From a virus, in the UHGV virus genome UHGV-0079576: DNA of 25,233 nt; one strand, 5' to 3'. The position numbers and the translations under genes were made by a program. The number at the start of each line of letters is the position of its first letter. Position 1 is the stretch's first letter. Below, in pieces: positions 2,071 to 25,233 of the stretch. The notes under the pieces were generated by a model. It ran no database searches. It was not told the DNA's origin and was given only the letters and a program-made list of their open reading frames with translations.

Positions 2071-2268
2071 ATGCCAGTAAAGCCTAACACGACGAAAGAT
2101 AAATTTGGAGATGATCTGATGATAAAAGCAGAAACCACCCCGCAGGGGGCTGATGATGCCGCAAAAATCATCGCGGTATGCCGGGGCATCAGACACATAC
2201 TGACGCCAGTTGCATGGATTATTTGTACCGCACTGGTTGCATACACAACAATTTATTTAAACAGATGA
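2071..2268 (+). CDS. Hypothetical small protein with a C-terminal transmembrane anchor (65 aa; alternative start at 2119)
   Basis: In-frame ATG at 2071; hydrophobic C-terminus ILTPVAWIICTALVAYTTIYL; stop overlaps the next ORF start (ATGA at 2265-2268). Confidence 0.4.
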   Translation: MPVKPNTTKDKFGDDLMIKAETTPQGADDAAKIIAVCRGIRHILTPVAWIICTALVAYTTIYLNR

Positions 2269-2351
2269 GTGCTGATTTTATTCGGGCGGTGGCTTTTGCC
2301 ATTCGTCTTGTGGCGGTCGCTGTTCTGATTTGGGTTGTACGTTGGTGGTGA
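2265..2351 (+). CDS. Hypothetical 28-aa single-helix membrane peptide
   Basis: ATG at 2265 overlapping the upstream stop; translation MSADFIRAVAFAIRLVAVAVLIWVVRWW; stop TGA 2349-2351 lies 1 nt before the next ATG; not in the ORF track (too short). Confidence 0.3.
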   Translation: MSADFIRAVAFAIRLVAVAVLIWVVRWW

Positions 2352-2352
2352 T

Positions 2353-2535
2353 ATGACGCGAAAACACTGGACACACAGAATGCCGCGAACGGCGGCGAAA
2401 TGGGCACTGGTAGCGATACTGGTGCCTTTTTTCCTGGTGGGATGCGTCAGCCTGGATAAAGCGCGCCAGCTTTTCGATACAGCTTCTCAGGTCTGTGAAA
2501 TTGTCGACGGTGTTCGGCAGTGTCTGCAGAACTGA
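2353..2535 (+). CDS. Predicted small lipoprotein (lipobox LVGC; mature part about 30 aa with 3 Cys)
   Basis: ATG at 2353 (alternative ATG at 2380); signal-like KWALVAILVPFFLVGC followed by CVSLDKARQLFDTASQVCEIVDGVRQCLQN; GGTGGTG upstream. Confidence 0.45.
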   Translation: MTRKHWTHRMPRTAAKWALVAILVPFFLVGCVSLDKARQLFDTASQVCEIVDGVRQCLQN

Positions 2536-2706
2536 ACGCCCGAAAGAGCAGAATATTTTGCTGAAAAATGAAGGGTGCGCCAGCGTCCGGAAAGCATGAA
2601 ATTCTGTGTTTGTGGCTACTCAATAAAATAAATTCTTTCTGTCGCCGCGAATACTCAAATGTTGATCAGTGCCCGGTGCGGCGACGGGCTTCGATATCAG
2701 GAGACG

Positions 2707-3006
2707 ATGATGGAAAAAACAGAAAACAAACCGATTGTAATTGGTGCTGATGCTGCTCCGTTTAAGTTTGAGTTGTCTCAACTGGTGGAGATGCGTATCA
2801 GTGATGAATGGGGTGAAGTTAAAGCCCGCGCGCAGTATGCGGATGGCGAAAACCAGTACCTGATCCACTACAAAGCTGCTGATGGTCGTGCCACAACTGA
2901 GTGGTTTGGTGAGTCAATGCTGGAAGCAACAGAAGATGATCGTCATCCTGGTTGTCCGGTATTTGCTGGTATGGAATTACCGAAAGGCGCGGTCGTTACT
3001 GAGTAA
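2707..3006 (+). CDS. Hypothetical small acidic protein (99 aa) directly upstream of cos
   Basis: ATG at 2707 with AGGAG 5-6 nt upstream; no recognisable family from sequence alone. Confidence 0.5.
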   Translation: MMEKTENKPIVIGADAAPFKFELSQLVEMRISDEWGEVKARAQYADGENQYLIHYKAADGRATTEWFGESMLEATEDDRHPGCPVFAGMELPKGAVVTE

Positions 3007-3092
3007 CGGGCATTACAGCAGCCCTTTATGGTGAGGGGCTGCGATAATGCAGGTATTAGAGTGTGCGTAAATGATAATTGCTCCTATTTCCG

Positions 3093-3292
3093 CGGGTCCT
3101 TTCCAGAATCTGAAACACCGGGGGTCTGGGGACGCGCAAAAACGCGCTATTTATGAAAATTTTCAGGGAAAAAGCAGATCCGTTCTTCTTCTGGCTAACC
3201 TGTTGTTTAATAGAATTTTCTTGAAAAAAAGAAAGGATCTGGCAGCGGTGATTTTTCGCTGAAAAAAGCGTTTTGAGATCCTTTCTTCTTTT
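3093..3292. other. cos packaging site: cosQ-like element, predicted cosN nick region, IHF-type AT-rich site and three R-type terminase-binding repeats (cosB)
   Basis: cgggtcctttcc (3093-3104) matches lambda cosQ; CGCTATTTATGAAAATTTTC (3145-3164) is identical to the lambda segment just right of cosN; GATCC(G/T)TTCTTCT occurs at 3177-3192 (direct), 3225-3240 (inverted) and 3277-3292 (direct), mirroring lambda R3/R2/R1; spacing to cosQ places cosN near 3118-3138. Confidence 0.75.
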
Positions 3293-3309: not shown

Positions 3310-3858
3310 GTGAAGGTTAACAAAAAGAAACTGGCGGAGATTTTTGAGTGCGATGTCAGAACAATCACTGGCTGGCAAAGTCAGGGGCTGAGAGTTTTGT
3401 CGGGGGGAGGCAAAGGTATCGAGGCCATGTTCAATACTGCAGAAGCCATTGAGTGGTATGCGCAGCGGGAAAAAGATATCGAAAACGAAAAGCTCCGCAA
3501 AGAACTGGAAGATTTGCGTGCGGCTGCAGAATCAGATTTACAACCCGGCACCATTGACTATGAACGCTACCGGCTAACCAAAGCACAGGCTGACGCACAG
3601 GAGCTGAAAAATGCCCGTGAAGAAGGGCTGGTGCTGGAAACGGAATTGTTTACCTTCATTCTGCAACGTGTGGCACAGGAGATTTCGGGGATACTTGTAC
3701 GTGTGCCGCTGACATTACAGCGTAAATATCCGGATATTTCACCGTCACACCTTGATGTGGTGAAAACTGAAATCGCGAAAGCCTCCAATGTTGCAGCTAA
3801 AGCCGGTGAAAACGTGGGCAGGTGGATTGATGATTTCAGACGCACAGAAGGCAGCTAA
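3310..3858 (+). CDS. nu1: Terminase small subunit (lambda Nu1-like)
   Basis: GTG start at 3310; N-terminus [26 protein letters not shown] parallels lambda Nu1 MEVNKKQLADIFGASIRTIQNWQEQG (helix-turn-helix); sits just downstream of cosB. Confidence 0.85.
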
Positions 3859-5746
3859 TGCAGCCGGTGCGATAGCCACAGGGCTTTTATCTCTCAATAT
3901 TCCGGTTCCACTGACGACGGTTCAGTGGGCTGATCAACATTATTATCTGCCGAAAGAATCTTCATACACTCCCGGACAATGGGAAACCCTGCCGTTTCAG
4001 GTTGCCATTATGAACAGCATGGGAAATGACCGGATCCGCACCGTTAATCTGATTAAATCGGCGCGCGTTGGTTACACCAAAATGCTGTTGGGGGTGGAGG
4101 CTTATTTTATTGAGCATAAATCCCGTAACAGTCTGCTTTTTCAGCCAACAGATTCTGCGGCAGAAGATTTCATGAAATCTCATGTTGAGCCAACGATCAG
4201 GGATGTCCCTGCATTGCTGGAGCTGGCTCCATGGTTCGGAAGAAAACATCGTGATAATACACTCACCCTGAAGCGTTTTTCCTCCGGTGTGGGTTTCTGG
4301 TGCCTGGGTGGTGCCGCTGCTAAAAACTACCGTGAAAAATCTGTGGATGTGGTCTGCTATGACGAACTCTCCTCGTTTGAACCGGATGTGGAAAAAGAAG
4401 GTTCGCCGACGCTGCTTGGTGATAAACGCATCGAAGGTTCGGTATGGCCTAAATCCATACGCGGCTCAACGCCAAAAATCAAAGGTTCCTGTCAGATTGA
4501 GAAAGCCGCGAATGAATCTGCGCATTTCATGCGGTTTTATGTCCCTTGCCCTCATTGCGGGGAGGCCCAGTATCTGAAGTTTGGCGATGATGCGACGCCG
4601 TCTGGCCTGAAATGGGAGAAGGGTAAACCGGAAACGGTGTATTACCTGTGTGAACATAATGGCTGTGTGATCCGGCAGTCGGAACTTGACCAGACCGACG
4701 GACGCTGGATTTGTGACAATACCGGGATGTGGACGCGTGATGGCCTGACATTTTACAGCGCCGGTGATGAGGAGATGCCGCCACCGCGCTCAATCTCGTA
4801 CCACATCTGGACGGCGTACAGTCCGTTCACCACCTGGGTGCAGATTGTCTACGACTGGCTGGATGCGCTGAAGGATCCAAACGGTGTTAAGACGTTTATT
4901 AACACCACGCTCGGGGAGCCCTATGAAGAGGCCGTGGCAGAAAAACTGAGCTTTGAGTTGTTGCTGGAAAAAGTCTGCCACTATGGCGCGCAGGTTCCCC
5001 TGCGGGTGGTTTACCTGACCGCCGGGATCGACTCCCAGAAAGATCGCTATGAAATTTATGTCTGGGGCTGGGCTCCCGGCGAAGAAGCCTTTCTGATTGA
5101 TAAGCAAATTATCATGGGGCGACCGGAAGACGAGGACACCCTTAAACGTGTTGATACGGTGATCCGGAAAAAATATCGTCATGCTGACGGTACTGAAATT
5201 TCCATTTCCCGTGTCTGCTGGGATACCGGTGGTATCGACCAGGACATTGTGTATCAGCGTTCCAGGAAACACGGCACTTTTTTTGTGCTTCCCATAAAAG
5301 GGGCATCGGTGTACGGCAAGCCGGTGATCACCATGCCCAAAAAGCGCAACCAGCGTGGTGTGTTTTTGTGTGAGGTGGGCTCCGATACCGTCAAGGAAAT
5401 GCTGTACGCCCGTTTTGCCCTGCCGGTGGTTTCTGCCAGTGAAGCCGCCCCGTATACCTTCCGTTTTCCGGATAACCCCGACATTTTTTCGGAAGAAGAG
5501 GCGCGTCAGATCGTGGCGGAAGAGCTGGTGGAGAAGGTGGTTAATGGCAGGGTGAAACTGCTGTGGGATAAAAAAGGGCGACGCAACGAAGCCCTCGACT
5601 GCCTGGTATATGCCTATGCTGCCCTGCGTATTTCAGTTCAGCGGTGGCAGCTGGATCTTGAAGCACTGGCCCGTGCCAGAAGAGATGAGCAGGACGACGA
5701 TGAGATGAGTCTGGAAGAAATCGCGGCTGCACTGAGTGGAGGATAA
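3830..5746 (+). CDS. A: Terminase large subunit (lambda gpA-like)
   Basis: Strong collinear similarity to lambda gpA (…[27 protein letters not shown]…[14 protein letters not shown]…[13 protein letters not shown]…WDTGGID…); start chosen at ATG 3830 (GGTGG upstream) inside the Nu1 3' end; track ORF begins at 3788. Confidence 0.95.
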
Positions 5747-11020: not shown

Positions 11021-11424
11021 TGATGTTCGATAATCTGTTCGATCAGGCCATGAGTGATGCGGATGACATCATCCTGGATACGATGGGGACGGAAATCAGC
11101 ATATATCCTGGCGGCACGGAAAGAAAAATCCGTGCCGTTTTCGATGCCCCGGCAGATAACACCGGGATGAACACTGGCAGCGGCGAAATTCGTGATACTG
11201 CGCCTGTGTTATTTACCCGGAGTGCATGGGCCGCCGGTCTGAAAAAATATGACAGGGTCATGATCCACGGCGAACCCTACCAGGTAGTCGATCCCGGCTG
11301 GGATGAGTCAGGCACTGCGGGTCAGGGTGTGATTACCATCACCCTCGCGCGGGGAGAGCCGGGGAGAAATACACCTTCCGCGCCGGAACGACCGAGTAAA
11401 CGTTATGGCAGTCAGAGAGCATGA
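11020..11424 (+). CDS. FII: Head-tail joining protein (lambda FII-like)
   Basis: N-terminus MMFDNLFDQAMSDADDII… parallels lambda FII MADFDNLFDAAIARADETI…; start overlaps the FI stop. Confidence 0.7.
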   Translation: MMFDNLFDQAMSDADDIILDTMGTEISIYPGGTERKIRAVFDAPADNTGMNTGSGEIRDTAPVLFTRSAWAAGLKKYDRVMIHGEPYQVVDPGWDESGTAGQGVITITLARGEPGRNTPSAPERPSKRYGSQRA

Positions 11425-12127
11425 ACGAAGCAGTGCCCGGCAGCGACGGCTGGCACGAAACCTCGTCGTCGATATTGATGAAGATGAGGTGCTGAAAATT
11501 ATCGCTAAACTGGGCGGTTCAAAAAGCCAGATCCGTAAAGCCTGGGGCGTGGCACTGAAAAGAGCTTCGTCTGCACTGCGGATGAAGGCTATGGCAGAGT
11601 TTAAAAAACAGGTTGCCCCACGCAGTCAGAAAATGATCAAAAAGCGTGTTCTGCATAATTTTGTCATTCGTCGTAACGGTGATGAGTTTGATGAGGCGAA
11701 GGTGTGGTTTGGTCTGAATGCCATCAAAGTACGTGATCTGCGCGGACGCATAAGTGGGGGACGACGCGGCGAACGTCATCAGTTGCGCGATGAGCGGGGA
11801 CGTTTTGCACCAGCTTCCCACCGCAGGAAGGCGCGGGAGATCCGTTTTAAACCTTCCGGGGAATCCCTGCCTGTCACCACCTGGTCAACGGATGATGCCT
11901 TCATCAACCAGTTCGAAACGGAAAATCGTAACGGACGTATATCAAAAAGGAAAACGATACTGGTCCGACAGGCATCCGGACGACGGAGGGTGCGTGAAGC
12001 GGAAATTGATATTTATGAAGCCATGCTGAACCGTATAGAGGATTTTGTTTTTCCGGATGCGGAAGCACTGATCCTGAAAAATTTTGAGCATGAACTGAAA
12101 TTCCGGGTATTTAAGGGGCTGGAGTGA
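11405..12127 (+). CDS. Putative neck / tail-completion protein (lambda Z-like by position and weak similarity)
   Basis: 240 aa, basic, overlaps the FII 3' end; weak resemblance to lambda Z in mid-region and C-terminus; assignment tentative. Confidence 0.4.
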   Translation: MAVREHERSSARQRRLARNLVVDIDEDEVLKIIAKLGGSKSQIRKAWGVALKRASSALRMKAMAEFKKQVAPRSQKMIKKRVLHNFVIRRNGDEFDEAKVWFGLNAIKVRDLRGRISGGRRGERHQLRDERGRFAPASHRRKAREIRFKPSGESLPVTTWSTDDAFINQFETENRNGRISKRKTILVRQASGRRRVREAEIDIYEAMLNRIEDFVFPDAEALILKNFEHELKFRVFKGLE

Positions 12128-12690
12128 TGGAGCCATTGATGATGGGAGCCTGGCATCAGGCGGTGATTGACAGTCTGAAACAAATTCCCTGGGTGGAAGA
12201 TGCCGATGAATACCCGGAAAAAGTGACGCAACTGGTGACGCCTGCCGTGTTTGTGGATGTACCTGGCTGGGACAAGACTCAGTTTGCCGACGGGCAGACG
12301 CGGGTCACGTTGAAATGTGATCTGTTTGTGGTGACAGACCGGGCCGGAAAGACGGAAAACGTGCCAAAACCGCAGATTTTTGCCCGTTGCCTGGCGATGG
12401 ATTTGTCTGACTGGATTGAGGGGGCCACGTTCGGGCTGGATAACGTTGATCCGGCTGTTTTTATTGATGCAGAGGTGGATACCTTCGACCGGCTTCTGGA
12501 TGACTACATCGTTTTCCGTGTTTCTTTCGAACAGGATATTCCTGTCGGGGAAGATCCGTTCGCGGTTCCGGCAGGTGCGCCATTACAGGAAGTCTGGCTG
12601 GGGAAAGTTCCGGAAACTGGCAAGAGACATGAGCGGGATTATCGTCTTATCTGGAAAACCGAGGGCACTGGCAATGAGTCTGGCGGATGA
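12127..12690 (+). CDS. Putative tail terminator / tail completion protein (lambda U-like fold by weak similarity)
   Basis: ATG at 12127 overlapping the upstream stop (TGATG); pattern WHQAVIDSLKQ…TPAVFVDVPGW…RVTLKCDLFVV…DYIVFRVSF resembles the lambda U layout. Confidence 0.4.
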   Translation: MEPLMMGAWHQAVIDSLKQIPWVEDADEYPEKVTQLVTPAVFVDVPGWDKTQFADGQTRVTLKCDLFVVTDRAGKTENVPKPQIFARCLAMDLSDWIEGATFGLDNVDPAVFIDAEVDTFDRLLDDYIVFRVSFEQDIPVGEDPFAVPAGAPLQEVWLGKVPETGKRHERDYRLIWKTEGTGNESGG

Positions 12691-13297
12691 AGTGGCAGAG
12701 TTACGCCGCAGGGTGGCGGATATGGTGCGGCGTGGGGTGGTGGAGGAAGTGATACCGGGTAGTCCGGTGATGGTTCGGGTGGATATCGGGGATGTGCTTT
12801 CGCCGCCGTTACCCTGGATTCAGGTGCAGTCCGGGCGCTACATGCAGGTCAGTAATTATCCGGCTCCCGGCGATGCCGTTACGGTGATATCGGAGGCGGG
12901 CGATCTGCGTAACGGTCGGGTGTATCCGGGGGCCAATATTGACGCTATCCCTGTCCCTGAGGGCAGTAAATACGAACATGTTATTTTGTTTGATACCGGA
13001 ACGGAAATCCGTTACGACCGTAAGGCTAATGCCCTGTCCATCACGCTGGCTGAAGGCGGTAGCTATAAAATTACCGGCAAGGGAACCCTGGACGGTCCGG
13101 TAGAAATCACAGACACCCTGACCGTACAGGGTAAAGCAACCATGAATACTGAAGCGGTAATTAAGGCGGATCTGACGGTCGGTGGTGAGGTTTCTGATCA
13201 TTACGGAACGATGAGTCAAATCCGGCTTGTCTATAACGGTCACAATCACCGGGGCGACAGTGGTGGCAGCACCGGACAGCCTGGTCAGCAAATGTAA
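12674..13297 (+). CDS. V: Baseplate spike / central hub protein (P2 gpV-like)
   Basis: ATG at 12674 inside the upstream gene's 3' end; N-terminus MSLADEVAELRRRVADMVRRGVVEEV and C-terminal HNHRGDSGGSTGQP parallel P2 V (…HTHKHPGDSGGTTGSP); the track's 12380 start is rejected. Confidence 0.75.
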   Translation: MSLADEVAELRRRVADMVRRGVVEEVIPGSPVMVRVDIGDVLSPPLPWIQVQSGRYMQVSNYPAPGDAVTVISEAGDLRNGRVYPGANIDAIPVPEGSKYEHVILFDTGTEIRYDRKANALSITLAEGGSYKITGKGTLDGPVEITDTLTVQGKATMNTEAVIKADLTVGGEVSDHYGTMSQIRLVYNGHNHRGDSGGSTGQPGQQM

Positions 13298-13330
13298 TCT
13301 CCTTTTCAGTTTTTTTCCGGAATAAACAAC

Positions 13331-13687
13331 ATGATTGGTATTGATTCAGCCACCGGCAGATATCTGCACGGTAACGAACATCTGCGCCAGTCCGTCACCG
13401 ATATTTTGTCAACGCCGGTCGGCAGCCGGGTCCTGCTCAGGGAATACGGCAGCAGACTGTTCAGTCTGCTTGATAACCCACAGGATGATTTCACGCGGGT
13501 GAGAATTGTCCGTGAAACGGCAACCGCCCTTGAACGCTGGGAACCCCGCCTGACCCTCCGGCGGGTGGAGGTGACGTGGACAGGAGCAGGGAGCGCCTGG
13601 CTGACGCTTGTCGGGGTGAACAACGAAACTCAGGACATGATTCGACTCGAGGAGATAAAAATTGGCAATGTCTCAGGCAATCATTGA
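13331..13687 (+). CDS. W: Baseplate wedge protein (P2 gpW / gp25-like)
   Basis: 118 aa; …SVTDILSTPVGSRVLLREYGSRLFSLLDNPQ…LERWEPRLTL… parallels P2 W. Confidence 0.8.
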   Translation: MIGIDSATGRYLHGNEHLRQSVTDILSTPVGSRVLLREYGSRLFSLLDNPQDDFTRVRIVRETATALERWEPRLTLRRVEVTWTGAGSAWLTLVGVNNETQDMIRLEEIKIGNVSGNH

Positions 13688-14576
13688 TCTGTCCGCGATA
13701 CCGGTACCGGATGCTGTGGAAGTGCCGGATACCGCAATGCTCGTCTCTCAGATAGTGGCGAAGTATCAGGAGGTGGATACGTTGTTTTCAGCACTGGTGG
13801 AATCTGATCCTGCTTATAAATGGGCGGAGGCACTGGCTTTTCGGGTGGCGCTGATGCGCCAGCAAATAAATGATGCAGTTCGTGCAGTACTGCTTGCCAG
13901 TGCCGGTGGGAACGATCTGGATCAGGTTGGCGCGAATTATCAGGTACAGCGGCTGGTAATTACCCCTGCAGACGACAGCACCATTCCGCCCACGCCGGCG
14001 GTGTATGAAGATGATGACGCCTTTCGCGAACGCATTCAGTTGTCATGGGCACGGCTCAGCACCGCTGGCGCGAAAAATGCGTACCACTATTTTGCACAAA
14101 GTGCTGATCCTGATGTGCTGGATGTGAAAGCCTACGGGCCGGAAACGCATTCGCAGGAAGGGCGGGTTTTTCTTTATGTGTTATCCCGGTCAGGAAATGG
14201 CACCGCATCACAACCCCTGCTGGATAAGGTGGCAGCATCAGTCAGTGATGATGAAACCCGTCCCCTGACGGATTTTGTCAGTGTCCGGGCGGCAGAAATT
14301 ATTCCCTACGACGTGGTGGCGAATATTCATATTCCCTACGGACTGGATGGTGAACTGGTAATGGCAAATGCCCGTAAGGCGCTGCAGTCTTACACTGACA
14401 GTGTCCACAGGATTGGTTCAGTGGCATCCCGTTCCGGCATGGATGGTGCACTGCACCAGACCGGGGTGATTACGGTGAATCTGACCTCTCCTGCCAGTGA
14501 TATCGTTCCTGCGATGGGGCAGGCACCGTGGTGCCGTAAGGTAACACTGAACAAGGTGGAGACAACCGATGAATGA
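13668..14576 (+). CDS. J: Baseplate assembly protein (P2 gpJ-like)
   Basis: Collinear with P2 J (AIIDLSAIPVPDAV…LLASAGGNDLDQVGANYQVQRLVITPADDSTIPPTPAV…); ATG at 13668 (track start is TTG 13662). Confidence 0.9.
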   Translation: MSQAIIDLSAIPVPDAVEVPDTAMLVSQIVAKYQEVDTLFSALVESDPAYKWAEALAFRVALMRQQINDAVRAVLLASAGGNDLDQVGANYQVQRLVITPADDSTIPPTPAVYEDDDAFRERIQLSWARLSTAGAKNAYHYFAQSADPDVLDVKAYGPETHSQEGRVFLYVLSRSGNGTASQPLLDKVAASVSDDETRPLTDFVSVRAAEIIPYDVVANIHIPYGLDGELVMANARKALQSYTDSVHRIGSVASRSGMDGALHQTGVITVNLTSPASDIVPAMGQAPWCRKVTLNKVETTDE

Positions 14577-16980
14577 CGATATCAGGAGCATACTGCCGAT
14601 CAATGCCAGCCGGGCAGAGCGGGTGGTGGACTGTGTCGCCGGAGATATGTTGGCAGACATAGCTGTCTGTCTGATCCGCTATGTGAAAAATCCCGATTTA
14701 TGTCCTGCTGAATTGCTGCCATGGCTGGCCTGGGAAATGGCAGTAGATACCTGGAATGAACACTGGACGGAGGTGGAAAAACGTTCTGCTATAAAGCGTG
14801 CCGCCTATATCCATCGCCACAGAGGGACTAAAGCGGCGCTGATGGCGTCGCTGGCTGACAGTCCGTTCCGGTCGCAGATTGTGGAATGGTATGAGCAGAC
14901 GCCGCCTGGTGATCCCTATACCTTCCGGTTGAATGTGGAGCAGAAGGACTTGCCTGTCCTGATGAGTGACCACCAGGATCTGAAACATGCCGTATTACGT
15001 GCCAAAAATCTGCGTAGCTGGTTCAGTATTCATGTTTATGGGGGCTGCCAGGGGAACGGATACAGCTATGGGTATGTGACAGCGACGGAAAAGATGAAAA
15101 ACAGGATACTGCCGTCAGAAATACAGTTGTCATCAGACAACTTACGACTGGCCCCTGGAGACGTTGTTTCTGTGCAGGTGACGGTGCTACCACTGATTGC
15201 TGATTCCCGCGTATTTTCTGTACAAATCGAAAATGACAGTGTGGCCGCGATAAGTGTTTCTGGTGATGTGGTTACTCTGACAGGGAAACAGTCTGGTCGA
15301 ACTACAGTCGTCGTATCAACGGTAAATGGAGTGGTTGCCAGACTGCCGGTAAGTGTTGTGTCGGTTGTTCAGGTTATTATCCGGGCAGATAACGCCAGCA
15401 TGCCACTGTTTTTTATCGATCCCCAGGATAACGACTTCACTATTGATTATGGTGATGGACTGGACAGCAGAGATTATGTGATTAAGGAGGATGTGGTCAA
15501 AGCTACCCGCACATTGCCGGTCGGAGAAGAAATTACACTGACGATTAAGGGCGCGGAAAGTCTGACATTCTACACCCCGAAGGCAGTAAACAACACCAAT
15601 CCACTCCTGGAGATCATCCGCGTCAGTGGTTCCAGAAAAGACATGTCGTGGTTTGCGAATCTGCAGTGGGCATTGCGAAAAATTCACGCAGGTTCTTTTG
15701 ATAATCTGCCTCACGTACTTTCATTTGAGAATGCCTTTAGGGGGTGTTCGTCTCTTCATGAATTACCTGAAAATCTTTTTGCCAGGTGCGAAGCTGTGGT
15801 GAATTGGTCTGGTGTATTCTATGGGTGCTCTGCCCTGACAGACATCCCACATTTATTTGCGACAAAATCAAGCGCGAACATACTTTCAAAACTGTTTTGT
15901 GGCTGTTCGGAGATCGTCCGGGTCCCGGAGACATTATTCGCTGGTATGGAGAATGCATTGACTTTTGAAAATGCTTTTTCCGGGTGTGAGAAGATGGTTA
16001 ATGCCCCCGCTATTCCAGCTCACAGACTTCAGAATTTTTACAGGGCGTTTTCTGGGTGTTGTAATCTTGCGGAACTCCCGGCGATATTTGGGGAGCAGAA
16101 CGAAAACGACGCATCATCAATTGATTTGTCCTGTGCGTTTTATGGTTGCCGAACACTGACAACCATTCCCGGTGGCTGGGCGGATGTTATCAGAAGCAGA
16201 ATTGCGCATATTGATGGCATATTTAATGAGTGTGACAGTATACGCAGTATACCTGCGCGATTGTTTTCTGGAGCAGATAAGCTTCGTTCTGCTAATAATG
16301 CGTTTTACAACTGCCACAGTATTACCCATGTTGGCGATGGTTTATTCGAGGGATGTCAGAAGCTGACAGGGATAAACGGGGTGTTTTATAACTGCAAATC
16401 ACTGGAAAGCATTGGTGACAGACTTTTTTCCGGGTGTGTGTCAGTTAAATCGGCATCAGAAACGTTTGCTAACTGTAATATTTCGACTGAGATCGGTGAA
16501 GGGACTTTTTCTGGTTGTACATCTCTGATATCAATGAATTCCGTTTTTGCAAATTGCAGAAAACTTATTATGTTACCGGCTGACACATTCAGAGGATGTA
16601 TTTCGCTGAAAGATGTGTCTTATATTTTTTCGAATTGCAATGCATTAACAAAGATTCAGGGGGAACTATTTGCAGACTGCCCACTTACCGTGAGCAGAGG
16701 CATGTTCAGATGGTGTTCGTCATTGATTAAGGTTCCTTGTGGGGTGATTAATCATCGGGAAAGTAGTGTCGACATGACCGAAATGTTTCGTGAGTGCACA
16801 TTATTGGCAATGGACATTAATGATATATTCCCGGATGTGTTTGCTGAAAAATGCAATCTGTCATATTTGTTTTTCCAGTGCAGCAATGTAACAGGCAGTA
16901 AGTCAGAATTTATGGCAAAGTTTCCGGATCCGGTATCTGTTGCTAATGCGTTTAATTATTGTTCGTTACTTACAGACTGA
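14569..16980 (+). CDS. I: Baseplate protein gpI fused to a C-terminal Ig-like (Big_2-type) domain and a long Cys-containing leucine-rich-repeat (BspA-like) domain; 803 aa
   Basis: First ~175 aa collinear with P2 gpI (…NPDLCPAELLPWLAWEMAVDTWNEHWTEVEKRSAIKRAAYIHRHRGTKAA…PPGDPYTFRLNV…); then an Ig-like beta-rich segment (VVSVQVTVLPL…VTLTGKQSGRTTVVVSTVNGVV); from ~15720 about 20 repeats of F-x-G-C-x-x-L-x-x-I/V-P; single uninterrupted ORF. Confidence 0.85.
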   Translation: MNDDIRSILPINASRAERVVDCVAGDMLADIAVCLIRYVKNPDLCPAELLPWLAWEMAVDTWNEHWTEVEKRSAIKRAAYIHRHRGTKAALMASLADSPFRSQIVEWYEQTPPGDPYTFRLNVEQKDLPVLMSDHQDLKHAVLRAKNLRSWFSIHVYGGCQGNGYSYGYVTATEKMKNRILPSEIQLSSDNLRLAPGDVVSVQVTVLPLIADSRVFSVQIENDSVAAISVSGDVVTLTGKQSGRTTVVVSTVNGVVARLPVSVVSVVQVIIRADNASMPLFFIDPQDNDFTIDYGDGLDSRDYVIKEDVVKATRTLPVGEEITLTIKGAESLTFYTPKAVNNTNPLLEIIRVSGSRKDMSWFANLQWALRKIHAGSFDNLPHVLSFENAFRGCSSLHELPENLFARCEAVVNWSGVFYGCSALTDIPHLFATKSSANILSKLFCGCSEIVRVPETLFAGMENALTFENAFSGCEKMVNAPAIPAHRLQNFYRAFSGCCNLAELPAIFGEQNENDASSIDLSCAFYGCRTLTTIPGGWADVIRSRIAHIDGIFNECDSIRSIPARLFSGADKLRSANNAFYNCHSITHVGDGLFEGCQKLTGINGVFYNCKSLESIGDRLFSGCVSVKSASETFANCNISTEIGEGTFSGCTSLISMNSVFANCRKLIMLPADTFRGCISLKDVSYIFSNCNALTKIQGELFADCPLTVSRGMFRWCSSLIKVPCGVINHRESSVDMTEMFRECTLLAMDINDIFPDVFAEKCNLSYLFFQCSNVTGSKSEFMAKFPDPVSVANAFNYCSLLTD

Positions 16981-16992
16981 TAAGGAGAATGT

Positions 16993-18381
16993 ATGCCATC
17001 AGGACTGACGTTAACAATACAAGGAGCAGCCGAAATTGAATCGGCTTATCAGACTGGTCAGGTGGTTACGATCACTCATGTACTGACGGGGGATGGTGGC
17101 GGTAAAACGTTACCATCAACACCTGATGAGATGGCTTCAATGTCGGCATTGTTGGGGCAATTTGGTCAGGAAGTGTTTTCTGAAGGTAAGGTTGAGCAGG
17201 GATTTATCAGTGGTGACATTGTCATTGACTGTAAAAAATATCCCGGAAGAACCTTGCGTGAGCTGGGAATGGTTAGCAGCAGCGGTACGCTGATTGCTTA
17301 TGGTCGTTATCCCGACACGTATTTACCGGCGCAGACTGATTCTGTTATCAAAGAAGTTATACTGACAATGGTTCTGGCGCTTACCCACACCCAGAATGTG
17401 ACGCTGGAGATTGATCCTGAAAGGGCCATTATTACCCAGGAAACAGGTGACAGGCGTTATCTGCAACGAAAAAACAATCTTTCAGATGTGGAAGACAATG
17501 ACGAAGCAATTGATAACCTCGGATTAAAACCCACGGTAGACAAGGCAAAAAATGCCGTTCAGCGTGATGGTGACACCATGAGCGGGGAACTGAAAATCCA
17601 TGGTGTGAATGCGCTGAGGATTTTCAACGAAGCTTTTGGTCTGATTTTTCGTCGTTCGGAAGAGTGCCTGCACCTTATCCCTACCAGTGAAGGTCAGGGT
17701 GAAAATGGCGATATTGGCCCCCTGCGTCCGTTCACCATAAATTTGCGGACGGGTGAGATATCCATGTCGCACAAAGTGTCTGTTGGCGGTGGTTCTCAGG
17801 TGAATGGTGCATTGGGTATCGGCGTTCTGAACGCACTGGGCGGTAACTCAATTGCTCTCGGAGATAACGATACAGGTATAAAACAAAACGGCGACGGCAT
17901 TCTGGATGTTTATGCGAATGGACAGCATGTATTTCGTTTTCAGAATGGGGTGGCAATAGCGTTAAAAAATATTCAGGCCGGAAATGCCAGGAAATTTACG
18001 CTATCCAGCACTAACGAATCTGCGAAAAATGCAACGTTTAATTTATGGGGGCATTCATCCAGACCCGTAGTTGTTGAACTTGGTGATGATTCAGGCTGGC
18101 ATTTTTACAGCCAGAGGAATACAGATAACAGCATCACGTTCGCTGTAAACGGACAGGTAGTGCCATCAAATTATGGAAACTTTGATGCCCGTTACCAGAT
18201 GAAAACAGGGATCGTACAGGATGTGCGACTGGGGAGTGCGGTTGGGATTGGGCGTGGAGGGAATGCACCATCAGGCCATTTGCTGAGCGGTGTTGATGGT
18301 GGCGAAAGCGTGGACTGGGCGAATGCCCGCCCGGTGCAGGTTCTGATTAATGGCGTCTGGCGGAATGTAGCGAGTTTGTAA
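16993..18381 (+). CDS. H: Tail fibre protein (P2 gpH-like N-terminal domain, divergent C-terminal receptor-binding part)
   Basis: 462 aa; AAGGAG RBS; N-terminus …VTITHVLTGDGGGKTLPSTPD…RELGMVSSSGTLIAYGRYP… parallels P2 H (…ITTMAVGDGGGK…RELGLYDDAGTLIAVANMA…). Confidence 0.75.
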   Translation: MPSGLTLTIQGAAEIESAYQTGQVVTITHVLTGDGGGKTLPSTPDEMASMSALLGQFGQEVFSEGKVEQGFISGDIVIDCKKYPGRTLRELGMVSSSGTLIAYGRYPDTYLPAQTDSVIKEVILTMVLALTHTQNVTLEIDPERAIITQETGDRRYLQRKNNLSDVEDNDEAIDNLGLKPTVDKAKNAVQRDGDTMSGELKIHGVNALRIFNEAFGLIFRRSEECLHLIPTSEGQGENGDIGPLRPFTINLRTGEISMSHKVSVGGGSQVNGALGIGVLNALGGNSIALGDNDTGIKQNGDGILDVYANGQHVFRFQNGVAIALKNIQAGNARKFTLSSTNESAKNATFNLWGHSSRPVVVELGDDSGWHFYSQRNTDNSITFAVNGQVVPSNYGNFDARYQMKTGIVQDVRLGSAVGIGRGGNAPSGHLLSGVDGGESVDWANARPVQVLINGVWRNVASL

Positions 18382-18383
18382 TT

Positions 18384-18929
18384 ATGATGCATTTAAAAAA
18401 TATTTCTGTTCAGAACCCTAAAACGATTGAGCAATACCAACTGGCACGACAGCATAAATTTTTATTGTGGCTGTTCTCAGAGGATGGTCAGGAATGGCAC
18501 GAAGCTCAGGAAAAATTTCAGCCAGACACACTCAAAGTGATTTATGTCAAAACGGGAGAAGTCGTCTGGGTCGGGAAAAATATCACATCGGTTTGCCCGG
18601 AAAATAAAAGCGTAATTGAACTGCCGGACATTACCGCGAATCGTCGTATTGCAGCGTCAGGCTACTGGTTTTACCGCAATGATGAATTTGTTTTCGACTA
18701 CAAATTAAAAGCAGAAGACGAACGCGATGCTCTGTTAAAGCAGGTCAGTATCGTGACCAGCGAGTGGGAAAAAGACCTGCAACTTGGGTTAATCAGCGAC
18801 GAAGATAAAGAAAAGCTGAAGGCGTACCGTATTTACGCAAAGAAATTGCAGATGATGGATTTCAGCAATATTTCGGATAAGGCCACTTACAACAATATCG
18901 TCTGGCCTGAGCCACCACAAAATATCTGA
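18384..18929 (+). CDS. Tail fibre assembly protein (Tfa-type chaperone)
   Basis: 181 aa immediately after the fibre gene; C-terminal …YNNIVWPEPPQNI motif typical of Tfa; low GC. Confidence 0.75.
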   Translation: MMHLKNISVQNPKTIEQYQLARQHKFLLWLFSEDGQEWHEAQEKFQPDTLKVIYVKTGEVVWVGKNITSVCPENKSVIELPDITANRRIAASGYWFYRNDEFVFDYKLKAEDERDALLKQVSIVTSEWEKDLQLGLISDEDKEKLKAYRIYAKKLQMMDFSNISDKATYNNIVWPEPPQNI

Positions 18930-18948
18930 AAAAGAAATGAATTATCTG

Positions 18949-18971
18949 ACCGCCTTAAGGGCGGTTTTTTT
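18949..18971 (+). terminator. Intrinsic terminator between fibre assembly gene and sheath gene
   Basis: Stem accgcc(18949-18954)/ggcggt(18960-18965), loop ttaag, then TTTTTTT. Confidence 0.6.
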
Positions 18972-18984
18972 ATGGGAGAAATGT

Positions 18985-20460
18985 ATGTCCGGATTACATG
19001 GTGTTGAAACCATTGAACTGACGACAGGCACGGTTGCCGTGCAGACCATCTCCACGGCTGTAATTGGCCTGGTGGGGACCGCGCCGGACGCCTCCGGTGG
19101 TGTGTGTGCTTCCGGTACAGCCGGTTCGTGGCTGCTGGGAACGGCGCTGGATTTTACGGCGAAACAGGAAGGTAGGGCTGGCAATAATATTTCGGTTGTT
19201 GCTGTCGCTGCCACAAAGCAAAGCGCGCAGACAGCGGCTTCGCTGGAAGGTTCGACCCTGATGATAACGCTGGGTACGGATGAACGCAGCCAGGTTAACA
19301 CCACGGTGGCTTGTGTGATTGAGGTGGTGAATGCACTGGGTGATTCGCCAGTGACAGTGGCGGTCAGTCCACTGAATGCAGAGGGTGCAGAAAATAATGT
19401 GGTGTCGCCGTTCAGTCTGACCTTATCCGGCGGAGAGGATGAGGCGTTTCCGGTTAATACACCGGTGGTGGTGGCGGGGGCGTTAACTCAGGCCGGGAAA
19501 CTGGGCGCAGCCGGGACATTATATCCGGCCCTGCGTGATATTTTTGACCAGACAGGTGCGCTGGTGATTGTGGTGCGTGCGGAAAGCAAAACGAAGGCAA
19601 AGGAAGCAGAACAGCGCGCGGCAGTCATTCGGGCAATGGAAGCCCTGATGGAAAGCAAAGGAAAAACGGGCTACCAGCCGCGCATTCTTATCGCTACTGG
19701 TTACAGTGAGGATGATGGCGTGGCAAAGGCGCTGGAAACGTACGCAGCGAAGTTACGGGCCGTGGCCTATATAGACTCCCCCTCAATGGCAACGCCGCAG
19801 GATGTGGTTCAGCGACGTGCGTCCTTTGGCGGGCGTGTGGAGCTGCTGCGTCCGCGCGTGTCAGTGATGGATGACAGCGGGCAGACGGTATTTCGTCCGT
19901 ATTCAGCACGAGCTGCAGGGCTACGTGCCCGTATTGATTACGAAAAAGGATGGTGGTGGTCCAAGTCAAACCAGGACGTGATGAATATCACTGGACTGGA
20001 GCAGGTTGACACATTTATTCTCGGAGAGCAGAACTGCACAGTAAACCTGCTGAACATGGAAAATATCTCCACCATTATTCGCCACGACGGTTTTAAACAC
20101 TGGGGGAACCGTCTGTGCTCATCCCACAGTCAGTGGCGTTTTGAGCCGGTACGCCGTACAGCAGATGTGATTGAAGACAGCATTCAGGAGGCCATGCTGC
20201 CTTATGTCGATCGGCCGCTTGATCGGGATGTGGCAGAAGACATTCTTGGCAGTATTAATGCCTATATGCGCCAGCTTAAAAATCTGGGCGCGATCCACGG
20301 AGGCAGTGCCTGGCTGAATGATGAACTGAATACAGCAGAAACCCTGGCGGCAGGGCAGTTGTATATTGATTATGACTTTGGGCCGAAGTCACCACTGGAG
20401 CGTCTGACACTGCGGGCGATGATTAACAATAAACTGGCGCTGGAGGAGCTGACAGTATGA
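18985..20460 (+). CDS. FI: Tail sheath protein (P2 FI-like)
   Basis: ATG at 18985 with GGGAG 6 nt upstream, downstream of the terminator; collinear with P2 FI (MSGLHGVETIEL…AVIGLVGTA…RARIDYEKGWW…TIIRHDGFKHWGNR…AGQLYIDYDFGPKSPLERLTLR); track start 18937 lies upstream of the terminator. Confidence 0.95.
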   Translation: MSGLHGVETIELTTGTVAVQTISTAVIGLVGTAPDASGGVCASGTAGSWLLGTALDFTAKQEGRAGNNISVVAVAATKQSAQTAASLEGSTLMITLGTDERSQVNTTVACVIEVVNALGDSPVTVAVSPLNAEGAENNVVSPFSLTLSGGEDEAFPVNTPVVVAGALTQAGKLGAAGTLYPALRDIFDQTGALVIVVRAESKTKAKEAEQRAAVIRAMEALMESKGKTGYQPRILIATGYSEDDGVAKALETYAAKLRAVAYIDSPSMATPQDVVQRRASFGGRVELLRPRVSVMDDSGQTVFRPYSARAAGLRARIDYEKGWWWSKSNQDVMNITGLEQVDTFILGEQNCTVNLLNMENISTIIRHDGFKHWGNRLCSSHSQWRFEPVRRTADVIEDSIQEAMLPYVDRPLDRDVAEDILGSINAYMRQLKNLGAIHGGSAWLNDELNTAETLAAGQLYIDYDFGPKSPLERLTLRAMINNKLALEELTV

Positions 20461-20975
20461 TTACGGGTGAAAAAAAACTGTTGCGCGCGTGGGCGTTATT
20501 TCTTCCTGGCGGGATCCGTCTTCAGGGGGCACATGAATACACGCCGCCTGCCATTAATATCACGACAGTGGATATCAAAACCGGCGCAATGGATGCACCG
20601 GTAGCAGTGGATGATGGCATGGAAGCACTGACCTGCTCATTTAAAATTTATGGCTACGATGTTGCCATGCTGACTCTGCTGGGGTTGCAGGCTGGACTTT
20701 ATTCACCGGAGATCGTTGTTCGTCAGGCTTACCGGGTGGGGAATGCGACCAGCGGACAGGTGGAAACCCTGCAGGGGATGATCACCAGTATCACCCCGGA
20801 TGCGCGCCCGGCAACATCACAGGCTGAGGCTTCGGTGACGGTGGAAATGTCACTGAGTTATTACCGTCAGGCTGTCGACGGTCTGGAAACCATCTGCATT
20901 ATTCCGGAGGAATTTGTGCGTCGTATTAACGGCGTTAATGTTCTGTCGGATCTGAAAAAAATTATCCGGGTTTAA
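20457..20975 (+). CDS. FII: Tail tube protein (P2 FII / Mu-type tube family)
   Basis: 172 aa directly after the sheath gene (ATGA overlap); size and position as a myophage tube. Confidence 0.8.
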   Translation: MITGEKKLLRAWALFLPGGIRLQGAHEYTPPAINITTVDIKTGAMDAPVAVDDGMEALTCSFKIYGYDVAMLTLLGLQAGLYSPEIVVRQAYRVGNATSGQVETLQGMITSITPDARPATSQAEASVTVEMSLSYYRQAVDGLETICIIPEEFVRRINGVNVLSDLKKIIRV

Positions 20976-20994
20976 TCCCGGCATCCTGTCATTC

Positions 20995-21022
20995 AGGCGG
21001 CTCAGGCCGCCTTTTCTTTTTT
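20995..21022 (+). terminator. Intrinsic terminator between tube gene and tail chaperone gene
   Basis: Stem aggcggc(20995-21001)/gccgcct(21006-21012), loop tcag, then ttttctttttt. Confidence 0.6.
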
Positions 21023-21036
21023 AAAAGGAGACGATT

Positions 21037-21339
21037 ATGTCGGAAAAAAACAGTGTTCCCGCCAGCAGTGTGGAAATTGTGTTATCCGTGCCGTATGTCA
21101 CCGCATCAGGACAGACGATCACGCATGTCACCATGCGTGCGCCTACCGTCCGCGATCGTCTGTTGCATCGCCGGAGTACCAAACCGGAAGCAGAGGCTGA
21201 TCTGGATATGATTGCCGGTCTGTGCGGGATGGACGCGGCGGACATGATGAACATGGAAGCGTGTGATTACCTGACCCTGGAGCGGCAGTTCAATGTTTTT
21301 TTGCTGCCGCCGGTCCGGCGGAAGAAGAAAGCATCCTGA
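21037..21339 (+). CDS. E: Tail assembly chaperone (P2 gpE-like), zero-frame product
   Basis: 100 aa; AAGGAG RBS; position between tube and tape measure; contains slippery heptamer near its 3' end. Confidence 0.7.
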   Translation: MSEKNSVPASSVEIVLSVPYVTASGQTITHVTMRAPTVRDRLLHRRSTKPEAEADLDMIAGLCGMDAADMMNMEACDYLTLERQFNVFLLPPVRRKKKAS

Positions 21340-21476
21340 CGGCGATACGGCGCGCCGGTGCCTGGTTCGGGTGGTCTCCGGGAGATGTGATGGCGCTGCC
21401 GTATACGGATTTTGTGGCAATGATGCTGGCGGAGTCGGAAGAGAGGAAGCGATGTTATGGCAACGGTGGGCGATAA
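21037..21476 (+). CDS. E': Frameshift-extended chaperone (P2 E+E'-like) by programmed -1 frameshift at T-TTT-TTG (21297-21303)
   Basis: Heptamer T TTT TTG in the E frame; the -1 frame is open from 21303 to stop TAA 21474-21476, overlapping the tape-measure start; GC-rich palindrome ccgccgg/ccggcgg (21307-21321) begins 4 nt downstream. Confidence 0.55.
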
Positions 21477-23109
21477 CCTTAAAGCGAATATCCGGATCGG
21501 AGGTTCGATAGATCCGTCGTGGAAAAAATCGGTTGATGGACTGAAGCACGGATTATCAGGGGCAACACAGGAAGTGGCTCGCCTGACACGCCAGCAGGAC
21601 GTACTGAAACGAAAAATTCAGGCTGGTGTACTGGCAGGACAGGATATTACCGAACTGCGAAAGCAGTATGAAAAGCTGGGCAGAAAAATTCATGATGCCA
21701 CCGGGGAACAGGATAAATTTAACCGTAAGCTGGCGCGGGCAGAACGTCTGGAACGCTGGAAAGGACGGGCCGGGACGGTTCTTAAAACCGGGCTGGGGCT
21801 TTCGGTTGGTTCCGGACTGACGCTGGCAGCCGGTGCCGGCGCGGTACTGAACCGGAATGCGGAAACGGCAGAGCGGTCAGGGATAGCCCGGAGTTACGGG
21901 GTGGATTATGAAACCTATGCGGCGTGGGATTCACTGGGCCGGCAGATGGGGTTAAACGGCGAAAACATCGGTGATCTGTTTGAGGAATACCGGAACAAGG
22001 TTTTTGACGATGATAATGGTGCCAAGGACAAAGGAGCCATTCAGGACGTATTCGGTAAACTTGGGCTGAAAGCGGGTGTAATGGTCGGAAAAAACAACCA
22101 GGAGCAGGTCGAGTTTTTGTTTGAACGCTTACTGCAGGTGGAGAATGAGCAGCAGGCTGCGGGGATGGCAGATGCGTTATTTGGTGGTGAAGCCAATAAA
22201 ATCCTGACCTGGATGCGTCTGTCAGGAAAGACCTTCCAGGAACTTATCAGTGAGCAGAAACGCTATAACCTGGTGACAAAGGAAGGGGCTGATGGCGCAG
22301 TTCAGGGGCATGTGGCGTTGTCAAATTTCCGTTATGTTCTGAGTTCTTCAATTGATGAAATCAGCGGACAGCTGGGTAATGAACTTGCTCCACATATTCA
22401 ACAGGTGACGGATGACCTTGCGGCCTGGTTTAAGAATGGTGGGCTGGAAAAAATCCGGGCATTTATCCGTGATGATGCCCTGCCGGCGCTGATCGACATG
22501 GCTGCGTGGATGTGGAAATTTGGAAAAGTTCTTGCCGGAATAACGCAGAAAGCCATTGAGTGGGGGCTGGCGGATGATCCGCGAGAGGACCGACGAGAAG
22601 TGCTGGAATATCTGGCAAAAATGGGGTCGCCGGAGCTGGCGAGAGCGGTAGCGCAGAAAAACGGTCAGGGGGAGTGGTTTGATGAACTGCTCAGGCAAAA
22701 TCCGGAGCTGACGAAACAGGTTGTACAGGCCTATAAAGACACTCGCGGTTATCTCCCCTGGAATCATGATGATAAAAAGTTTGATGCTTTTCTCGACCCT
22801 TTGTTGGGGCCGAAAGAAGAACCTGATTTTAAGGCGATAAAAGAGAAATCCCGCACCTACATTGACGGACTTCCTGCAGCAGATCATGGGCAGGGTAATT
22901 CGGACCCTCTCTCGGCTCTTCAGTATACCCCCGGCAATATCAGCCAGGTGGAAGTAAAACCCACGTATCAGATACGAGCGGAATTTAACATCACCCAGAA
23001 GCCCGACGAGGATGCCGGACAACTGGCAGACAGGGTAATGAGAAATCTGGGAGATATTAATTTTGGTCAGCGTTCCCGCATGACCGATGGTGATGCATTC
23101 TGGGGGTGA
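21457..23109 (+). CDS. T: Tail tape measure protein (P2 gpT-like)
   Basis: 550 aa, coiled-coil-rich N-terminus, Gly/Ala-rich hydrophobic segment (TGLGLSVGSGLTLAAGAGAV); position after E/E'. Confidence 0.9.
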   Translation: MATVGDNLKANIRIGGSIDPSWKKSVDGLKHGLSGATQEVARLTRQQDVLKRKIQAGVLAGQDITELRKQYEKLGRKIHDATGEQDKFNRKLARAERLERWKGRAGTVLKTGLGLSVGSGLTLAAGAGAVLNRNAETAERSGIARSYGVDYETYAAWDSLGRQMGLNGENIGDLFEEYRNKVFDDDNGAKDKGAIQDVFGKLGLKAGVMVGKNNQEQVEFLFERLLQVENEQQAAGMADALFGGEANKILTWMRLSGKTFQELISEQKRYNLVTKEGADGAVQGHVALSNFRYVLSSSIDEISGQLGNELAPHIQQVTDDLAAWFKNGGLEKIRAFIRDDALPALIDMAAWMWKFGKVLAGITQKAIEWGLADDPREDRREVLEYLAKMGSPELARAVAQKNGQGEWFDELLRQNPELTKQVVQAYKDTRGYLPWNHDDKKFDAFLDPLLGPKEEPDFKAIKEKSRTYIDGLPAADHGQGNSDPLSALQYTPGNISQVEVKPTYQIRAEFNITQKPDEDAGQLADRVMRNLGDINFGQRSRMTDGDAFWG

Positions 23110-23111
23110 AC

Positions 23112-23600
23112 ATGGTGGATTTACTGGGCTGGGGCGTAAACCGGCTTGAGCGTGAAGCATGGGACGCGGTGGGCTCATTAACGGATGTCGCCTCCCGCGT
23201 CATGCTGTCGTTTGGTGAGTTTGAATTCAGTATTGATACGGCAGCCTATAACGCCATGAAGCGCACTATGGAATGGCGATGGGATGAACAGCAACTTATC
23301 GGAAAAAACGACCTGCTGCAGTATACCGGTAAGGGGGCCAGAACAATAACCCTTGAAGGTATGGTGCATGCGGGATTTCGTGACGGTGTGGGAATGGATG
23401 CCCTTGATACACTGGTTCAGATGGTGGATGACAATCCGGCTCCGCATCTTCTGGTTTCGAGCACAGGTGATGTGATGGGGTATTTTGTGGCAACTGCCTA
23501 TTCAGATAACACCACGTCCTTTCTTCCCGGCGGTGCGCCGAAGAACAAAACGTTCACACTGGAGCTGAAATACTATGGCGAAAAACTGGCGGACCACTGA
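23112..23600 (+). CDS. U: Tail protein (P2 gpU-like)
   Basis: ATG at 23112 (GTG 23106 overlaps the tape-measure stop); size and position as P2 U between T and X/D. Confidence 0.75.
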   Translation: MVDLLGWGVNRLEREAWDAVGSLTDVASRVMLSFGEFEFSIDTAAYNAMKRTMEWRWDEQQLIGKNDLLQYTGKGARTITLEGMVHAGFRDGVGMDALDTLVQMVDDNPAPHLLVSSTGDVMGYFVATAYSDNTTSFLPGGAPKNKTFTLELKYYGEKLADH

Positions 23601-23793
23601 CGGCGATATGCTGGATGATATCTGTCAGAGACACTATGGCAGTGCCGGACTTAACCAGTCACTGGCAGCGGTACTGGAGGCTAATCCGGGGATTGCTGAC
23701 TTTGGTCCGGTGTATCCCGCAGGGGTGGAAATCGTGTTGCCGGACTGGACATATGAGCCGGAAGAGGAGGAGGCGTTTCAGTTATGGGACTGA
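23575..23793 (+). CDS. X: Tail protein X (P2 gpX-like, LysM-type)
   Basis: 72 aa; …GDMLDDICQRHYG…LEANPGIADFGPVYPAGVEIVLPD parallels P2 X (…GDTLDAICVRYYG…LAANPGLAELGAVLPHGTAVELPD). Confidence 0.8.
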   Translation: MAKNWRTTDGDMLDDICQRHYGSAGLNQSLAAVLEANPGIADFGPVYPAGVEIVLPDWTYEPEEEEAFQLWD

Positions 23794-24884: not shown

Positions 24885-24908
24885 TGTTTTCTGTATCAGG
24901 TAATAAAA

Positions 24909-25233
24909 ATGGCTGTATTAATTTCAGGTGTGCTGACTGATGGCGCGGGACTCCCCATGTCCGGATACCATATTCTTCTGAAAGCCAGGCAGAATACATC
25001 TGCAGTGGTCATGAGAACGGTGGCTGCAGTGGTGACAGGGGCGGCAGGAGAATATGCCTTTGAGGCTCAGACCGGAAAATATGATGTATATCTTCGGTCG
25101 TGCATTGAAAGAGAATATTGTGTCGGTGACATTTCAGTTTATGAAGACTCCAGACCCGGCACGCTGAACGACTTCCTTACCGCCCTTGATGAAGACGACC
25201 TGAAGCCGGATGTGGTGAAGCGTTTTGAGGAAA
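24909..25233 (+). CDS. stf: Side tail fibre protein, N-terminal part only (lambda Stf / prophage tail-fibre N-terminal domain); runs off the window
   Basis: MAVLISGVLTDGAGLPMSGYHILLKARQNTSAVVM…YDVYL…ISVYEDSRPGTLNDFLTALDEDDLKPDVVKRFE parallels lambda Stf MAVKISGVLKDGTGKPVQNCTIQLKA…YSVIL…ITVYEDSQPGTLNDFL…EDDARPE. Confidence 0.75.
   Translation, partial: MAVLISGVLTDGAGLPMSGYHILLKARQNTSAVVMRTVAAVVTGAAGEYAFEAQTGKYDVYLRSCIEREYCVGDISVYEDSRPGTLNDFLTALDEDDLKPDVVKRFEE

Follow-up and report, generated by a model that had tools for sequence, protein, structure and literature searches.

The window analysed here is a stretch of 25,233 nt from a virus genome (UHGV-0079576), and all coordinates refer to it unless another sequence is named. 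Positions 3093-3292 carry a cosQ element, a predicted cosN, an I2 segment and three R repeats with an IHF-like I1 site among them (Table 1). Immediately downstream, where a Nu1-like gene had been predicted, lies the gene of a Nu1-family small terminase subunit (TerS), followed by that of a gpA-family large subunit (TerL). The N-terminus of TerS, a winged helix-turn-helix, is homologous to the solved DNA-binding domains of lambda gpNu1 (PDB 6hn7 and 1j9i). Past the terminase genes, the gene order runs through gpW, a lambda-family portal and homologues of C, D, E and FI into P2-like contractile-tail genes. This union of a P2-like tail module (baseplate V/W/J/I, sheath, tube) with head genes of the lambda type (Nu1, A, W, B, C, D, E, FI) was noted in 11405-25233.

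Upstream of cosQ, the slot between the endolysin gene and cosQ (2071-3006) holds small hypothetical ORFs only, of which the ORF at 2710-3006 gave no Pfam match; in SerU-LTIIb (L003, KU052038, 5219-6679) the same slot is occupied by LT-IIb enterotoxin genes. At 289-714, in the late region just upstream of the holin genes, a TerB-family (tellurite-resistance-like) gene and a DUF3927 gene were found, which look like accessory genes. Scans of the cos region for promoters, terminators and Rfam families returned no match, and the absence of promoter-like or terminator-like sites fits late transcription running straight through cos.

Table 1. Features of the cos region and adjoining terminase genes. 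Class B is the group of cosN sites described in the text; sites and ends are predicted by comparison.
Feature	Coordinates	Strand	Remarks
cosQ heptamer GGGTCCT	3094-3100	+	inside 12-mer 3093-3104 = lambda 48472-48483; termination signal for packaging
cosQ-cosN spacer	3105-3122	+	18 nt (19 in lambda, 21 and Gifsy-1); ends in class-B left flank CACCGGG
Predicted cosN 5' overhang GGTCTGGGGACG	3123-3134	+	lambda register, natural hybrids, symmetry axis, diversity profile
Hypervariable core, overhang positions 3-9	3125-3131	+	inside predicted cohesive end
Class-B right flank CGCAAAAACG (lambda: CGCGGGTTTT)	3135-3144	+	invariant in class-B loci retrieved by a pattern not covering the flank
I2 segment	3145-3164	+	20/20 vs lambda 23-42; IHF-like core TATGAAAATTTTC at 3152-3164
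cosB R3 GATCCGTTCTTCT	3177-3189	+	putative TerS binding site, Gifsy-1 type; lambda R3 register; R/helix covariation
I1, IHF-like TAACCTGTTGTTT	3196-3208	-	1 mismatch to WATCAANNNNTTR; homologous to I1 annotated at 74-86 in phage 21
cosB R2, inverted, GATCCTTTCTTTT on minus strand	3227-3239	-	R-pattern and repeat searches
cosB R1, direct, GATCCTTTCTTCT	3277-3289	+	R-pattern and repeat searches
TerS gene, Nu1 family, 182 aa, GTG start	3310-3858	+	Pfam PF07471, E=3.4e-85
TerL gene, gpA family, 638 aa	3830-5746	+	Pfam PF05876 + PF20454

The site had originally been recognised from lambda motifs, and on alignment with lambda cos both the cosQ 12-mer and the I2 20-mer proved exact. The 12-mer CGGGTCCTTTCC, taken for the cosQ core, is present as a single copy in the window and includes the 7-bp cosQ, which is also annotated in the phage 21 record OL657228 and conserved in related loci. 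The 20-mer CGCTATTTATGAAAATTTTC is likewise a single copy identical to lambda, but it does not adjoin cosN as had been proposed; it is the I2 segment, begins 10 bp to the right of the overhang and stands in register with R3. In this order and with 35-45 nt between them, the two motifs occurred a single time in the window and never in 100 shuffles. Anchored on I2, window positions equal lambda positions plus 3122, a register that holds for I2, R3 and I1, with the R3 core TCCGTTCTTCTTC matching the lambda 57-69 register base for base. In a global MAFFT alignment with lambda cos, a 1-bp difference in cosQ-cosN spacing put cosQ out of register, and anchored registers were used instead. In these, GGGTCCT lies 29 bp before the predicted nick, compared with 30 bp in lambda and 21 and the approximately 30 bp typical of a cosQ.

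Exact matches to GATCCKTTCTTYT fall on the three R repeats of Table 1, in (+), (-) and (+) orientation, for a chance expectation of 0.07, and a repeat search recovered the same direct and inverted arms as the R-pattern scan. The direct-inverted-direct order given in the original prediction is therefore right, although the middle repeat departs by one base from the consensus quoted there. R3, I1, inverted R2 and R1 stand at lambda-like positions, the layout of a complex cosB, at which binding by TerS is putative. The predicted likeness to lambda R3/R2/R1 applies to arrangement and register; the R sequence itself is of the Gifsy-1 type.

The R repeats follow the form AGATCC(G/T)TTCTT and match neither lambda (GTTTCCGTTCT) nor phage 21 (TGTCGGTACTTCTCG), and their R3 core AGATCCGTTCTTCTT is identical in R3 of Gifsy-1. 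Correspondingly, the helix region of TerS (CDVRT.T.WQS) is close to that of Gifsy-1 (CDVRTVTAWQSQGL), the equivalent segments being VDPRTIERWQSQGL in phage 21 and ASIRTIQNWQEQGM in lambda. From about 3434 onwards the TerS gene has 92% DNA identity to gene 1 of phage 21, which makes TerS a mosaic whose DNA-binding domain is of the Gifsy-1 type and whose C-terminus is of the 21 type, the two being joined near this position; what is 21-like at this locus is the TerS C-terminus together with the ATPase half of TerL. In about 80 loci, each of five R-sequence types is matched by its own type of TerS helix, the window combining a Gifsy-type R with a Gifsy-type helix, and this natural covariation supports the R repeats as TerS binding sites.

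On these comparisons, 3093-3292 is read, with a probability of roughly 85%, as the cos site of a prophage of the lambda family that is about 46 kb long and has lambda/21-type head genes and a contractile tail. As the cos of a lambdoid prophage the site is ordinary; its variant cosN is moderately interesting.

The cos region is 100% identical in the mouse E. coli genomes M8, RSHH22 and SK6988, and the whole window is 99.4% identical to M8. In SK6988 the relative lies between potC and potB and is IS-free and about 46.4 kb long, with integrase, early, lysis, head, tail and terminase genes annotated as intact. The M8 relative contains two IS66-family insertions (L007 39030-41618 and 12519-14935), both absent from SK6988. 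The window is without the tail insertion (site at about 18990), and the site of the early-region insertion is outside it. The tail insertion shortens the sheath ORF (473 aa in M8, 491 aa in the SK6988 annotation, 507 aa in the window) and brings the M8 prophage to about 51.6 kb; this copy may have become defective or may exceed the length that can be packaged. These insertions, and the fact that among the isolated phages of the collection searched none matched this head/tail combination over more than 30% of the query, lend some weight to the view that the site is a cos by descent only, fallen out of use in a defective prophage from which no virion ends would arise. This is improbable, although it is the strongest of the alternatives, since the window lacks the tail insertion and has a sheath ORF of 507 aa, and the SK6988 copy appears complete. 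Moreover, strong conservation across loci sets cosQ, the cosN flanks, I2 and the R sites apart from variable neighbouring DNA, which argues for continuing selection on the class of sites (class B, below) to which this one belongs.

The original prediction overlooked that the cohesive end itself is not lambda-like, 6 of its 12 bases being identical to lambda. In the window the interval from cosQ to I2 is 40 nt long (41 in lambda, 21 and Gifsy-1) and reads CACCGGG GGTCTGGGGACG CGCAAAAACG, with the lambda overhang GGGCGGCGACCT absent. Conserved features reported for lambda-like cosN sites are GGGC at the start and a CG flank on each side (PMC4669245), and a passage in PMC9303873, citing Vahanian 2017, describes the left half and the CG flanks of cosN as conserved. 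The canonical arrangement, a 12-bp overhang starting GGGC(GG) between two CG flanks, is not found here, the left flank being GG and the site reading GG^GGTCTGGGGACG^CG. The predicted nicks, 3122^3123 on the top strand and 3134^3135 on the bottom strand, are 12 bp apart and both inside the bracket of 3118-3138 that had been derived from lambda spacing; the 12-nt length of the overhang is assumed from family membership.

Support for this frame, which is that of lambda, comes from the unchanged spacing to I2 and R3, from natural hybrids, from a dyad axis and from covariation. Class-B loci have 18 nt between cosQ and cosN and canonical loci have 19, apart from two single loci, L087 (19) and L053 (20). 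L087 joins a canonical left flank, CCACG, with 19-nt spacing directly to GGTCTGGGGACG, whereas L016 joins a class-B left flank with 18-nt spacing to GGGCGGCGACCT; in L086 and L092, class-B flanks enclose GGGCGGCAGACG in the same frame. L087 and L016, both IMG/VR contigs, are reciprocal hybrids with their junction exactly at the predicted top-strand nick, as would be expected if packaging sometimes begins and finishes at different cos types. The best dyad axis runs between overhang positions 6 and 7, with a class-B mean of 4.16 of 8 pairs (other axes at most 3.13); the partial symmetry amounts to 4 of 8 pairs in the window itself and to 5.0 at the same axis in canonical sites. Overhang positions 4 and 9 covary, as C-G in 22 unique sequences and A-T in 4, with C-C in 5 exceptions.

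The same cos could instead be nicked 2 bp further to the left, as CG^GGGGTCTGGGGA^CG with the overhang at 3121-3132. The window does contain CG (3119-3120), 12 nt and a second CG (3133-3134), and such a frame would retain the flanks reported as conserved in lambda-like cosN (PMC4669245). It would, however, place cosN 2 bp farther from I2 and R3, although cosN-cosB spacing is critical in lambda (PMC9026076), and would leave symmetry in the flanks only (2.61 of 8 pairs, compared with 4.16). The CG flank of L087 directly adjoins GGTCTG, GGGCGG is placed in the lambda frame by L086, L092 and L016, and position -2 varies in class B (G, A or C). The left-shifted nicks are accordingly considered unlikely, and the lambda frame is retained below.

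Related sites were gathered by three pattern scans, and a cos-anchor regular expression aligned 103 loci together with lambda and 21. The flanks of the window's cosN are common to 40 of these loci (31 unique sequences), referred to here as class B, and six further independent places in five RefSeq E. coli genomes, fetched later, show the same pattern. Within the 40 loci, 15 different 12-mers occupy the overhang in the lambda frame. The commonest is that of the window, GGTCTGGGGACG, and the others include GGTCATAGCACG, GGTCATGGGACG, GGACGGCAGACG, GGTACGCGTACG, GGTAGGCATACG and GGGCGGCAGACG; L101 is a related site with a different right flank and GGTACGGGTACG. Nucleotide diversity (pi) was computed on 21 class-B loci retrieved by a pattern not covering cosN, and was 0.416 at overhang positions 3-9, 0.000 at positions 1-2 and again at 10-12, 0.011 at positions 13-29 and about 0.08 in the downstream cosB at positions 68-200. 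In another pattern-retrieved set, positions 13-41 are invariant partly by construction. Canonical sites retrieved by the same pattern vary only at positions 7-12, with 5 variants in 58 loci. Class B thus breaks the published rule of a conserved left half and CG flanks, having GG^GGTC in place of the canonical CG^GGGC.

Of 5426 complete E. coli genomes, 83 contain class B, with 105 places in all, whereas the species-representative genomes gave 0 matches to the Gifsy-type cosB pattern or to the class-B pattern; the class was seen in E. coli-type data. None of the phage-collection records has its ends at a class-B cosN, the only two class-B records there being SerU-LTIIb (a partial prophage) and vB_EcoM-705R4, with the site internal in both, and none of the metagenome and IMG/VR contigs ends at such a site. 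A literature text search with six class-B overhang strings returned unrelated primers only; the main survey of cosN variation (Vahanian et al., 2017, Virology 509:140) may already list the class. The idea that co-resident prophages carry different overhangs was not supported, the two copies in STEC383 sharing one overhang. In vB_EcoM-705R4 (L112, ON470624, 3000-3115) a class-B cosQ-cosN with overhang GGTCGGTAGACG is followed by different DNA with neither I2 nor R repeats, and a different small terminase gene begins about 65 bp past the overhang, so that another downstream region and another TerS gene can also be attached to the class-B module.

The class-B site is associated with the C-terminal part of TerL. 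The ATPase half of the window's TerL is 95% identical to gp2 of phage 21, whereas the nuclease half is divergent and specific to class B; in 40-residue bins, identity to gp2 is 87-100% over the first 240 or so residues and 57-82% from about residue 280 on. The 20 closest class-B loci have 10 different overhangs between them, yet their TerL proteins share no less than 97.7% identity. In all 26 of 26 class-B loci, spanning four cosB/TerS types, the nuclease half is 91.5-100% identical to that of the window, and this persists where the ATPase half falls to 83%, whereas in canonical loci (n=35) the nuclease half is only 60-80% identical even where the ATPase half reaches 95-96.5%. The cosN class (3105-3144) co-segregates with the nuclease/portal-binding half of TerL (4830-5746) and not with the TerS, cosB or ATPase segments. 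As the exchanged TerS/cosB/ATPase segment lies between the two, the association suggests functional coupling of enzyme and site; it could also reflect shared descent of the head module.

Two further accounts of the segment fare poorly. It might be protein-coding, with an incidental likeness to cos: an ORF of 63 aa spans 3071-3262, and its counterpart is annotated in SerU-LTIIb (KU052038) as a CDS, 'NU1-like protein'. This is very improbable, as RefSeq places no gene here in M8 or SK6988, conservation tracks the cos subsites with the 7-bp hypervariable block inside the ORF, and the lambda motifs match exactly and in register at the DNA level; the CDS of KU052038 overlying cos is probably a mis-annotation. 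Finally, that a PICI-like satellite uses this cos to exploit a helper terminase can be practically dismissed: PICIs do place a lambda-like cosQ and cosN ahead of a small gene for a DNA-binding protein (PMC9026076), but in place of the rpp replacing terS, R3-only cosB and missing structural genes of an Rpp-dependent PICI, the window has a Nu1-family TerS of full length whose TerL-binding C-terminus is of the 21 type, together with a gpA-family TerL, complete sets of head and tail genes, three R repeats and I1.

For the lambda-type cos, the following mechanism is proposed by homology with lambda, 21 and Gifsy-1. The Nu1-type TerS would bind R3, R2 and R1 while IHF bends the DNA at I1, and this assembly would position the gpA-type TerL on cosN, where it would make the staggered nicks 12 bp apart and leave GGTCTGGGGACG as a 5' overhang. 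Packaging would then proceed rightwards, terminase genes first, and stop at the next cos on reading cosQ, cosN and I2. The virion map put forward in the original prediction follows from this gene order on comparative grounds: the terminase genes would be at the left end, and the lysis genes with the small ORFs of the slot upstream of cosQ at the right end of any virion that this prophage is inferred to produce. Specificity would be modular, a Gifsy-1-type cosB with its TerS DNA-binding domain being combined with a class-B cosQ-cosN-I2 unit. In this unit only GG...ACG and the flanks would be fixed, overhang positions 3-9 would vary freely, and the whole would travel with the allele of the TerL nuclease half.

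For a prophage type found repeatedly in E. coli from animals and humans, the site sets the virion map, in which the terminase genes would be packaged first and the slot upstream of cosQ last. Nature has in effect linked near-identical gpA-type enzymes to 15 overhangs and so tested how little of cosN has to be read by the nuclease, and class B contradicts the generalisation that the first overhang bases and both CG flanks are conserved. The association of the cosN class with the nuclease half of TerL, against a free exchange of cosB and the TerS domain, points to two separately evolving recognition modules in one packaging site. A tentative proposal, held with rather less than even confidence, is that the class-B cosN forms a distinct and undescribed branch of lambda-type cohesive-end sites, in which an allele of the gpA nuclease domain reads only the flanks (GG...ACG and CGCAAAAACG) and the cosB/I2 geometry, leaving the seven central bases free to change; these do change far faster than the DNA around them. 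If true, many mutually non-cohesive sticky-end 'alleles' would exist among otherwise near-identical prophages, and the rule of selection on the left half of the lambda-family cohesive end would be overturned; it would then be asked whether sticky-end diversity is tolerated or selected, for example through end incompatibility between competing phages or satellites.

Compared with known systems, the site shares with lambda cos the cosQ 12-mer, the I2 20-mer, the register of R3-I1-R2 (inverted)-R1 and the downstream Nu1/gpA genes with their Nu1/A-style overlap. It differs from lambda in the overhang (GGTCTGGGGACG compared with GGGCGGCGACCT, the left half differing at positions 3 and 5), in the left flank (GG compared with CG), in a cosQ 1 bp closer to cosN, in the R sequence (AGATCC... 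compared with GTTTCC...) and in the TerS helix (RTITGWQS compared with RTIQNWQE), and the two TerL proteins are 64% identical. With the Salmonella phage Gifsy-1 it shares an identical R3 core, and the two are alike in R2 and R1, in cosQ and I2 and closely so in the TerS DNA-binding domain, whereas Gifsy-1 has a canonical cosN, GGGCGGCAGCGT, with a TTACG left flank and 19-nt cosQ spacing, and a different TerS C-terminus; nuclease halves in Gifsy-1-type loci are 75-80% identical to the window's. The TerL-binding C-terminal part of TerS is nearly identical to that of phage 21 (gp1/gp2), and the TerL ATPase half, cosQ and I2 are also alike, but the R sequence TGTCGGTACTTCTCG and the helix RTIERWQS of phage 21 are missing from the window, 21 has the cosN of lambda, and the nuclease halves are 72% identical. 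The simple cos sites of N15 and the PICIs resemble it in a lambda-like cosQ and cosN and in tolerating cohesive-end variants (that of N15 departs from lambda at positions 9 and 12), but they have a single R3 and lack I1, R2 and R1, and their natural variants change only the right half of the overhang.
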